Source of the DNA: a virus
Strand: one strand, 5' to 3'
Length of the DNA: 64,000 nt
IMG/VR virus record: IMGVR_UViG_3300045988_089178
Made by a program: the position numbers and the translations under genes. How positions within the stretch are numbered: the first letter of the stretch is position 1; each line of letters starts with the position of its first letter. Below, piece by piece: positions 44,993 through 46,311 of this stretch. A model generated the notes under the pieces. That model was not told the origin of the DNA and did not search any database. It saw only the letters and a list, made by a program, of their open reading frames with translations.

Positions 44993-45039
44993 TCTTATAT
45001 ATATTATATAATAAAATTTTATATAAATCAAAACGCCGA

Positions 45040-45100
45040 ATTGCCAAAATTTTGGGCAATTTTTGTTATATAAAATTGCCAATTTTTTATATATCTATGA
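45040..45100. promoter_or_regulatory. cluster of TTGCCAAAATTTT-type motifs including near-palindrome TTGCCAAAATTTTGGGCAA, immediately upstream of the recombinase gene (candidate res/crossover site or operator)
   Basis: Motifs at about 45048-45066 and 45083-45095; related copies at 46215-46265. Confidence 0.4.
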
Positions 45101-45110
45101 GGTGATAAAG

Positions 45111-45734
45111 GTGTTATACGGATACGCACGAGTTAGTTCACGTGACCAAAATATTGACCGCCAAATTCTTGCTTTAACTGAAGCTGGGGTTAAAGAAGAA
45201 AATATCTTCATAGATAAACAGTCGGGCAAAGATTTTAATAGACCATCTTATTAGAAAATGATGGATACTGTGACTTCAGGAGATATGATTCTCCTGAAGT
45301 CCATTGACAGACTAGGACGTAATTATTCTGAAATTCTTGAACAATGGAGTTTAATAACAAAGACAAAAAATGTAGATATAAAAGTTTTGGATATGCCATT
45401 ATTGGATACGTCATATTGCAAAGATATTATGGGTACTTTTATATCAGATCTAGTCTTACAAATCTTATCTTTCTAGGCTGAACAGGAAAGAACATATATT
45501 AAATAGAGATAGGCAGAAGGAATAGCCGCAGCTAAATAGAAAGGAATAAAATTTGGTAGACCAAGAAAAAATCTTCCAGATAATTTCGATGAATTATATG
45601 AACGCTATCTACATAATGAGCCAATTACTAGATTAGCGAAAGAATGTCAAGACATATCTGAAAGCACTCTTAGATTAAGAATTTATGAGCGTTAGCAAAA
45701 AGATCGGTTAAACGGAAACCCGCAGGTCAAATAA
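45111..45734 (+). CDS. small serine recombinase (resolvase/invertase family), 5 in-frame TAG
   Basis: GTG start after SD GAGGTGATAAAG; N-terminal catalytic motif [11 protein letters not shown]; about 207 aa; track ORFs 45063-45254 and 45258-45476 are in the same frame. Confidence 0.7.
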
Positions 45735-45785
45735 AGTTAAATTATCTTCCTATTGTTTTATATATAATATAAAGGAGGAATTAAT

Positions 45786-46175
45786 ATGCCTGAAATTGTT
45801 ATTCAAATATTCTAGCTTTGTATTCTTCCTCTGCTTGGTATTTTAACAAAATATCTCATAGATTTCCTCTCTGCTAAACGAGATGAGTTAAATTCTAAGA
45901 CAGAGAATGAAACAGCTTAGAAATACACCACTATGATATTTGATACTATTACTAAATGTGTAATAGCTACAAATCAGACTTATGTTAATAGCTTAAAAGA
46001 ACAAGGTGCTTTTGATGCTGAGGCTCAAAAAATTGCATTTGATAAGACTATGGAATCTGTATTAGAGATCTTATCATCTGATGCAAAACAATATATTATT
46101 GAGACAACTGGCGACTTAAATACTTACCTAACTAATCTCATTGAAGCCGCGGTTAATGAAAATAGAGCATCATGA
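45786..46175 (+). CDS. putative holin (LL-H-like: single N-terminal TM then amphipathic helices), 2 in-frame TAG
   Basis: SD AAAGGAGG plus ATG 45786; track ORF 45933-46175 is the in-frame C-terminal fragment. Confidence 0.4.
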
Positions 46176-46204
46176 TATAATGGGGTTACTATGCCCCATT
46201 ATAT

Positions 46205-46270
46205 TTTTATACTAAAATTGGCAAAAATTTTGGCAAAATAGTAAAATTATCTTTGCCAAAATTTTATATA
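46205..46270. promoter_or_regulatory. second cluster of TTGGCAAAA / TTGCCAAAATTTT motifs downstream of the holin-like gene
   Basis: TTGGCAAAAATTTTGGCAAAAT at 46217-46238 and TTGCCAAAATTTT at 46253-46265; related to the 45040-45100 cluster in direct and inverted orientation. Confidence 0.4.
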
Positions 46271-46311
46271 ATAATGAAAGGCCAAGGGAATATTTTAAAG
46301 GAGGTAAAACT

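Follow-up and report, generated by a model that had tools for sequence, protein, structure and literature searches.

DNA invertases of phages are textbook host-range switches, and those described so far (Mu, P1 and relatives) act on coding segments. The question addressed here is which DNA is the substrate of REC, a small serine recombinase encoded between genes of the tail-fibre type and a holin-like gene in IMG/VR virus record IMGVR_UViG_3300045988_089178. The 64,000 nucleotides of this record that were analysed (the window) derive from a large AT-rich phage (33% GC) in which TAG is a sense codon. In an initial annotation, clusters of repeats bracketing the REC-holin segment had been proposed as sites for an inversion of Gin/Hin type, as two res sites for excision, or as autoregulatory operators; the observation is real, and the proposed mechanism is mostly wrong. 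With moderate confidence, and on the basis of sequence comparison, the clusters are here interpreted as promoter/operator modules, REC as a member of a Clostridia family of promoter invertases, and a pair of inverted sites at 43477-43502 and 43636-43661 as its likely substrate in the phage (Table 1).

Relatives of the locus were surveyed in ~43 independent related contigs from IMG/VR, JGI, Logan, ENA and one GenBank metagenome-assembled genome (MAG), all of them assembled consensus sequences and not reads. One closely related contig is included in a Eubacterium MAG bin; in an annotated phage collection no close relative of the window was found.

A recoded serine recombinase related to Sin

REC is a single open reading frame (ORF) only when six in-frame TAGs are read as sense, a feature absent from the initial annotation. 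At five of the six positions a TAG-free orthologue (L086) has glutamine, and the phage is evidently one that recodes TAG as Gln. The protein of about 207 aa from the resolvase/invertase family that had been announced is borne out by this ORF, which matches Pfam Resolvase PF00239 (1e-30, residues 3-145) and the PHROG 'DNA invertase' (3e-53), and REC is assigned to the small serine recombinase (resolvase/invertase) family. The catalytic serine motif, Y-x-R-V-S-(S/T)-x-x-Q, is present at residues 3-13 and an FGRPRK arm at residues 148-153, and the catalytic motifs are intact across all clades. The closest solved relative is the Sin resolvase (PDB 2R0Q, 8e-36), with an alignment over residues 1-191 that continues into the DNA-binding domain. 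Scores are lower for the γδ/Tn3 resolvases (~1e-23) and the Gin-type invertases (~1e-15). No separate helix-turn-helix match was obtained in the Pfam search, and no equivalog cut-off was reached in a search of NCBIfam. Most probably REC functions as a DNA invertase and has a link to tail-fibre genes; because it is TAG-recoded, it is probably made only late in infection.

The gene is also carried by further phage clades. In the sister clade of L086-L088 and L191, REC is 75% identical, contains no TAG and gives full-length gene calls with the standard code, and recoded and non-recoded relatives thus have the same locus architecture. In the clade of L212-L215 it is 82% identical, and a - strand gene for a 247-aa protein with a NAGPA domain lies immediately 5′ of the upstream cluster. 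In the window, a two-codon mini-ORF (ATG AGG TGA, 45097-45108) overlaps the Shine-Dalgarno (SD) sequence of REC; mini-ORFs CTATGAGAAAATAA and variants also occur upstream of bacterial homologues (L101, L116, L148, L152).

Invertible promoters of the Clostridia homologues

All bacterial relatives of REC are from Clostridia, the genomes of which commonly carry homologues of 57-62% identity. By enumeration of k-mers 3′ of the recombinase genes in 79 such loci (L095-L173), a conserved 26-bp site was found, TTnCAAAAAAGT-AC-ACtTTTTtGnAA, which consists of two 12-bp A-tract half-sites around a 2-bp AC core. It replaces a first-guess downstream motif, AAAGTGCACTTT, which was wrong. Two or three copies are present in 56 of the 79 loci, as an inverted pair just 3′ of the recombinase gene. 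In the typical layout 20-50 bp separate the stop codon from the first site, and the inverted partner of that site follows after another 115-200 bp (spacing 115-203 bp, median 137).

The segments enclosed by these sites flip in nature. Loci L105/L108 and L107, from different genera, have flanks that are 100% identical and inner segments that are 96% identical only as reverse complements; the same pattern of opposite orientations is seen for L100/L126 against L106/L113, and the orientation differs in 6/10 pairwise comparisons of near-identical bacterial loci. A promoter scoring >=10/12, on either strand, is found in 29 of 54 bacterial elements, compared with 12% of shuffles, and the inner promoter segments measure ~110 bp. 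Because the inner segments occur in both orientations and more than half of them contain promoters, the family is identified as one that drives small invertible promoters, in elements of ~140-190 bp. Holins are not among the neighbouring genes; in several loci a gene resembling those of methyltransferases or helicases lies 3′. No description of this Clostridia site family was found in the searchable literature.

A candidate inverted pair of family sites between two fibre operons

A position weight matrix (PWM), built only from the bacterial sites, was run over the 64-kb window, and its two best matches form an inverted pair, 159 bp apart (sites A and B). In 200 dinucleotide-preserving shuffles the mean maximum score was 11.9 and the highest 21.5; the score of site A was reached by 1/200 and that of site B by 0/200. 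The 14-bp core AAAAAGTACACTTT, its AC dinucleotide included, is identical in the two sites. A resemblance to hix/gix half-sites had been noted for the cluster repeats, and half-sites of the hix kind do matter at this locus, but the real hix-type sites appear to be A and B, outside the region to which that resemblance had been attributed.

Site A is conserved in all clades. In the L086 clade both sites read GTACACC instead of the GTACACT of all other clades, a concerted change, and the pair of L089 shows a one-base variant of the core. Every REC-bearing phage locus that covers the region has exactly one pair, with no other copy in ~10 kb, and none was found in 12 loci that lack REC. REC always co-occurs with the pair, which in the window lies 1.45 kb 5′ of it. 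At the edge of the L212 locus a single 26-bp site was observed, the partner of which would fall outside the fetched DNA.

The element is placed in a divergent region, between the target gene of a diversity-generating retroelement (DGR) on the - strand and tf1, a gene of the tail-fibre type, on the + strand; in L008 it is ~70 bp from the upstream cluster. It contains a promoter, a leader hairpin and a terminator, all on the - strand. The promoter is the sole promoter-like site in 43300-43760 and is directed towards the DGR-target operon; its -10 hexamer reads TATAAT, GATAAT, AATAAT or GAAAAT across the clades. In the leader hairpin, compensatory double changes are seen in two pairs across the clades, and the hairpin of L089, AAGGTTA-TCT-TAACCTT, co-varies again. 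The element also holds an invariant TTGACC. Its architecture is conserved though the sequence drifts, the mean column identity being ~63% for inner segment and flanks. An Rfam scan of the element gave no family above threshold. Matches to a PWM of the heptamer model at 43533 and 43560 were rejected as the arms of the terminator hairpin. Another hairpin, AGCGA-TCT-TCGCT, is found at 43435-43447, in the leader between site A and the start of the DGR-target gene; in L008 its pairing is kept with GGCAA...TTGCC.

Compared with the Clostridia elements, the window shows the inverted 26-bp pair and the inner promoter, and among the contigs a single orientation. REC would invert the 185-bp promoter-hairpin-terminator cassette between sites A and B, which in the observed orientation is directed towards the DGR-target operon and after a flip would face tf1-tf3 on the + strand.

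Table 1. Features of the locus, in window coordinates. PWM, position weight matrix; SD, Shine-Dalgarno sequence; DGR, diversity-generating retroelement; RT, reverse transcriptase; TR, template repeat; VR, variable repeat.
Feature	Position	Strand	Properties
Site A, candidate 26-bp crossover site	43477-43502	+	CCGAGAAAAAGT-AC-ACTTTTTAACAG; PWM score 19.4
Site B, candidate 26-bp crossover site	43636-43661	-	CTTTAAAAAAGT-AC-ACTTTACTGAAC; PWM score 25.4; inverted relative to site A
Inner segment	43503-43635		Whole element 43477-43661, 185 bp
σ70-like promoter	43617-43645	-	-35 TTTACT, 17-bp spacer, -10 TATAAT; 10/12 matches
Small conserved leader hairpin	43571-43583	-	5-bp stem; GAGTA-TCT-TACTC on + strand
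Intrinsic terminator	43526-43566	-	Leftward only; 13-bp stem + TTTTTT; -23.2 kcal/mol, z = -5.3; all clades
Hybrid junctions predicted for the flipped state			GAGAAAAAGTACACTTTACTGAA and partner CTTTAAAAAAGTACACTTTTTAACAG (outer half of site B joined to inner half of site A)
Junction contexts predicted for the flipped state			...TTTCCGAGAAAAAGTACACTTTACTGAACTTGGTCAAC... and ...CCTGTTAAAAAGTGTACTTTTTTAAAGATT...
REC, small serine recombinase	45111-45734	+	207 aa; GTG start, six in-frame TAG (=Gln), TAA stop
U module (putative)	45041-45110	+	Palindrome TTGCCAAAATTTTGGGCAA 45041-45059, third heptamer TTGCCAA 45076-45082, A/T box, REC SD
D module (putative)	46213-46290	+	TTGGCAA 46218 + 46230 (TTGGCAAAAATTTTGGCAA, palindrome-like), TTGCCAA 46253, -10-like TATAAT 46267-46272
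Holin-like gene	45786-46175	+	129 aa with two in-frame TAGs; single hydrophobic helix at the N-terminus; phrog_13712 holin 1e-32
Intrinsic terminator 3′ of holin	46174-46212	+	13-bp stem then T-run; -18.1 kcal/mol, z = -4.5
g46312	46312-46737	+	First gene of the operon predicted to be served by the D module
DGR target gene	41605-43362	-	585 aa; Big_3-type fibre/adhesin, C-terminal VR; TTG start 43362-43360 after AAGGAGG; N-terminus MPKCILAEQGGKGGGS
DGR, complete	39372-43362	-	RT 39372-40589 (three in-frame TAGs), TR 40896-40998, VR 41619-41721
tf1, tail-fibre-like	43688-44326	+	MECILTGQ...GGGS N-terminus; phrog_26419 tail fiber 2e-11
tf2	44349-44747		3′ of tf1
tf3	44744-44992		3′ of tf1

The repeat clusters as probable promoter/operator modules

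The TTGSCAA repeats upstream (U) and downstream (D) of the REC-holin segment were correctly located in the initial annotation (U, 45041-45082; D heptamers, 46218/46230/46253). Both clusters contain three heptamers with a spacing of 12 + 23 bp. The sequence TTGCCAAAATTTT has three exact copies in the 64 kb, all inside the clusters; among 300 dinucleotide-preserving shuffles none had three heptamers in 50 bp and none had two clusters, and the clusters cannot be chance.

In the window, U and D match in direct register over ~75 nt (46/75 identities). An inverted match of 23/26 nt, between 45041-66 and 46211-36, spans these 26 nt only and is a by-product of the near-palindromic heptamers. Nine U and six D copies from all clades can be aligned jointly, colinear and nearly gap-free, over ~78 nt. 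The invariant columns of this alignment form both arms of an A/T-centred palindrome of 19-20 bp, TTNSC-W9-GGNAA, and the copies also share a box, ATTTTC-ATATA...ATGA (ATTTTC-TATAAT-type). The U palindrome begins 70 nt 5′ of the REC start codon in every clade compared, and behind the TATAGT box of the L212 U copy comes a distinct leader of ~35 nt that has its own SD. Three relatives that lack a recombinase at the locus, L040, L203 and L205, carry the D module with a TATAAT box ~100 bp 5′ of their g46312 homologue; in L203 the module separates divergently transcribed operons. Each contig contains the D 21-mer a single time, and it is confined to this phage group. L089 carries REC together with the U palindrome and lacks D, with only a terminator and convergent genes 3′ of the holin gene, and the third heptamers are missing in the L086 clade.

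These relations fit best if U and D are paralogues of one promoter/operator module of ~75 bp that is specific to the lineage and repeated in direct orientation. D lies in an intergenic region that requires a promoter, and palindrome and box are conserved in the U/D alignment. Since D is kept in the REC-less loci and follows a terminator, it is considered independent of REC and the probable promoter region of the g46312 operon. The U copy would serve REC and the holin gene, and the D copy would restart transcription for the g46312 operon past the holin terminator. The palindrome would presumably be bound by a dimeric DNA-binding protein, for which REC is one candidate; in the phage it reads TTGCCAAAA-T-TTTGGGCAA and looks like two outer half-sites of the recombinase family minus the central ~8 bp, where cleavage occurs. 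Regulatory operator is the best fit among the three roles initially proposed for the clusters; it is putative, with REC predicted only as a candidate ligand.

Other assignments of the heptamers were discarded. A σ54 promoter (TGGCAC-N5-TTGC) was rejected by inspection, the second element being TTGG and not TTGC. As plain -35 hexamers the heptamers give one good σ70 pairing only (46218, TTGGCA-18-TAAAAT), which is not conserved in L008 and L086. Among known operator motifs, those of CodY, the Spo0A 0A box, CtsR and the omega heptads do not appear to fit the clusters.

Counter-evidence and alternative readings

Several observations weigh against inversion of the A-B cassette by REC and against the regulatory role of U and D. 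Hybrid sites of a flipped element were found in none of 63 loci, representing ~43 contigs and 21 distinct element sequences; 11 phage elements that appeared 'FLIPPED' were artefacts of loci stored as whole reverse complements and have no hybrid sites. A protein search with the ORF expected from the flipped junction returned two entries, both parental, and was without power because there are only two. The few extra per-sample contigs retrieved via flanking ORFs and REC fragments are all in the parental orientation. A roughly even equilibrium of orientations, as suggested by the bacterial loci, is unlikely in the phage; a minority orientation would be invisible in assembled consensus sequences. 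The position differs as well, the bacterial element being 20-50 bp 3′ of the recombinase gene and the phage element 1.45-2.7 kb 5′ of REC, and at their outer 5 bp (CCGAG, CTTTA) the half-sites of the phage depart from the bacterial TTnCA consensus. With the terminator separating the promoter from either exit of the element, the cassette would need read-through or antitermination to drive either operon, which is a speculative step. L008 and L009 have no fibre genes on the right-hand side. As to the modules, no A/T-centred palindrome was found upstream of 72 bacterial homologues, and in most clades the A/T box of U abuts the SD, so a transcript from there would have almost no leader.

A serious though unlikely alternative is that the site pair is an inactive relic or fixed regulatory DNA and that REC inverts nothing here, acting perhaps as a DNA-binding regulator at U and D or having no role. 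The single orientation in all ~43 contigs from five clades would be explained in this way, as would the degenerate outer half-sites and the distance of REC from the pair, unlike that in the bacterial loci. A relic is, however, difficult to reconcile with the identical 14-bp core, kept while inner segment and flanks fell to ~63% mean column identity, or with the concerted change of both sites in L086. The intact catalytic motifs of REC in all clades and the strict co-occurrence of pair and recombinase likewise argue for sites in use.

It is far less probable that the clusters act as RNA, with hairpins formed by heptamers 2 and 3 serving as terminators or attenuators before REC and g46312. In favour of this are the predicted folds, -12 kcal/mol for U, -15.9 kcal/mol for D and -22 kcal/mol (z = -8.3) for the U of clade 2; the U hairpin is called terminator-like, and the stems of the window and clade 2 differ in sequence while pairing is kept. 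Nevertheless, the third heptamer and with it the hairpin are lacking in the U copies of L086 and L089 as well as in the D copies of clade 2, L040 and L203, the U-run 3′ of the stem is not conserved, and the invariant columns belong to the arms of the first palindrome rather than to the hairpin.

Little credit can be given to a resolvase acting on two direct res-like sites, by which REC would excise a REC-holin circle, or on U alone to resolve genome multimers. U and D are indeed direct repeats of one module, Sin is the closest solved relative of REC, and Sin-type res sites combine inverted and head-to-tail half-sites. The res of Sin measures 86 bp, with separate sites I and II, and that of Tn3 114 bp (PMC2428073). 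The clusters are only ~45 bp long and consist of three overlapping half-sites, without the separate site I, spacer and site II of the 86-bp resH, and the centre of the heptamer-2/3 palindrome differs (TA in U, AA in D). In addition, D is independent of REC, and the activity demonstrated for the family is the inversion of small elements. Pattern scans of the IMG/VR and JGI metagenome contigs for inversion and deletion junctions were empty; they are weak, the exact window-type flank being present in only 4 IMG/VR contigs, and for this reason the survey of synteny is the stronger negative.

A Hin-like switch, inverting the 1.17-kb REC-holin segment between 45041-66 and 46211-36, is close to refuted: the 23/26-nt match is inverted, the REC gene would be inside the segment and the TTGCCAAAA half-site is like the family half-site TTGCAAAAAAGT, but 0/~43 related contigs are inverted, gene order and orientation being the same in all, the 26-mer has no 12+2+12 dyad symmetry and would-be cores that differ (TG and TT), and the palindrome of 19-20 bp lacks the central ~8 bp (AGT-AC-ACT) of the real sites. 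Location of the recombinase gene inside the invertible segment is a property of the Hin system. Its hixL site is 26 bp long, and a single core mismatch blocks ligation by Hin (PMC4817059). The bracketing that had suggested a substrate is itself not general: by the refutation test of the initial annotation L089 counts against excision, as it retains the recombinase without the downstream cluster, and recombinase-less phages (L040, L203) retain that cluster. The clusters have neither the 12+2+12 sites and two orientations of Hin/Gin systems nor the crossover site of ~28-30 bp and accessory sites, over 86-114 bp, of a res, and neither the inversion nor the excision of the initial annotation is supported, the latter on low-power scans for its junction. 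The clusters are best read as something other than partner sites for inversion or excision of the REC-holin segment.

Flanking operons and genome context

In the DGR to the left of the element, 13/13 mismatches between TR and VR are at template adenines, and VR is at the 3′ end of the target gene. The + strand genes of fibre type to the right vary between clades. The genes that come first to either side of the element begin (K/E)C(I/V)L..Q in four clades, and in the window a 28-nt inverted repeat (43328-55/43692-719) corresponds to these shared N-terminal codons (MPKCILAEQ..., MECILTGQ...), which suggests a common N-terminal anchor for alternative fibres. REC had been placed directly after three tail-fibre genes; this holds for tf1 by its PHROG match, and the other two genes have no annotation. 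The ORF list agrees that the bracketed segment has no coding fragments of tail fibres on the opposite strand. Further to the left, an inverted repeat with perfectly matching arms of 25 nt around a loop of 6 nt (38224-38279) is found between convergent genes and looks like a bidirectional terminator between the + strand structural and the - strand DGR blocks.

The earlier call of a holin-like gene is supported by its PHROG match, and the homologue in L203 adjoins a CHAP/PG_binding endolysin. The terminator that follows keeps its position across clades, with a different hairpin sequence. In L203 (5313-7740), which has no recombinase, a lysis cassette of a 99-aa membrane protein, a 506-aa CHAP/PG-binding endolysin and the holin is on the opposite strand, and this cassette and the g46312 operon diverge across an intergenic region that bears the palindrome. 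Two differences in gene content were observed downstream. Close relatives contain ~1.29 kb (L091, 5483-6778) that is missing from the window at ~47413-47415 and comprises the last part of the g47009 homologue, two genes of 163 aa (Cys-rich) and 140 aa, and the first part of a gene of 165 aa. In L029 (clade 2, ~6500) the g46312-g47666 block of ~3 kb is wholly lost, with a breakpoint just 3′ of TAATGAAAG in the D module.

The structural and lysis genes on the + strand of the window carry in-frame TAGs at high density, and the structural genes become long ORFs once TAG is sense, including one of 2,908 codons (2908 aa) that holds 101 in-frame TAGs. Genes of the - strand replication module (48-63.6 kb) mostly have 0-1 TAG, the exception being ORF 60495-62246 with 13. 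A scan for tRNA genes detected none in the 64-kb window, and thus no suppressor tRNA(CUA) there; the genome is ~100-147 kb and the gene may be outside the window. TAG-recoded gut phages likewise have TAG in structural and lysis genes and largely not in replication genes (bioRxiv 10.1101/2021.08.26.457843). Recoding itself is nothing new compared with these phages; specific to the present case is an invertase among the recoded genes.

Comparison with known recombination systems

The system most similar in design is the Hin/hixL-hixR H-segment of Salmonella. There, too, a small serine recombinase acts on invertible DNA that carries a promoter and not coding exons, through inverted 26-bp sites composed of 12-bp A-tract half-sites and a 2-bp core. 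In contrast to the H-segment, the candidate phage element is 185 bp and not ~1 kb long, has the recombinase gene outside, lies between two fibre operons and contains a terminator besides the promoter. REC is also nearer to Sin than to the Gin/Hin group (8e-36 against ~1e-15). Firmicutes are not known to have Fis, and hence no Fis/enhancer is expected for REC.

With the Gin/G segment of Mu, the Cin/C segment of P1 and Pin of e14, the locus shares a phage serine invertase beside tail-fibre genes, one site between fibre genes and invertase, and alternative fibres with a common N-terminal part. In Mu and P1, however, it is coding DNA that inverts and is joined to an invariant N-terminal exon, whereas the candidate invertible DNA of the present phage is non-coding. 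The alternatives in this phage are two complete genes in divergent orientation, one also DGR-diversified.

The catalytic domain of REC is ~45% identical to that of Sin (PDB 2R0Q), with an alignment into the DNA-binding domain (1-191) and a common Firmicutes origin. Unlike for Sin and its resH, no 86-bp res with site I, HU spacer and head-to-tail site II was found at U or D, residues F52 and R54 of the site I-site II contact are Thr in the REC alignment, and the natural products of the REC family are inversions. The res of Tn3/γδ, which is also an autoregulatory operator, resembles U in having half-site-like motifs just 5′ of a serine recombinase gene that overlap promoter-like signals. Tn3 res contains three dimer sites over 114 bp, compared with a U palindrome of 19-20 bp; moreover, the phage module also occurs in recombinase-less relatives, and binding of REC to U is only conjectured.

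Bacterial invertons, such as the Mpi-dependent capsule promoters of Bacteroides and the Clostridia loci described here, are short, intergenic and bounded by inverted repeats, with an outward promoter, all of which applies to the candidate element. The recombinase that flips such an element is dedicated to it and has its gene close by. The candidate differs in being on a phage genome, far from a TAG-recoded recombinase, with 0 flipped among the contigs surveyed.

Implications

In its fullest form the proposed mechanism is tentative. A late, TAG-recoded invertase may flip the cassette, such that progeny express either a DGR-diversified receptor-binding protein together with the DGR machinery or a second fibre set with the same anchor; the TTGCCAAAA palindromes could be extra REC operators that tie expression of the holin and the late operon to REC.

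If the proposal is correct, two mechanisms of host-range diversification, mutagenic retrohoming and phase variation, are combined at one locus. A non-coding phage promoter inverton between a DGR-diversified operon and alternative fibres would be a design different from that of Mu and P1. In the searchable literature, reports of putative invertons on viral contigs of the gut begin in 2026, with few read-supported candidates (PMC13501310), and no description of a DGR-linked phage inverton was found there. For annotation, the locus teaches that repeats on both sides of a recombinase gene are not necessarily the substrates of the enzyme. The Clostridia recombinase family is widespread and its 26-bp site recognisable, so that it can be used to find more switches, many of them by methyltransferase or helicase genes. 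A promoter inverton in this phage would also link the control of host range in gut phages to the invertons of gut bacteria.

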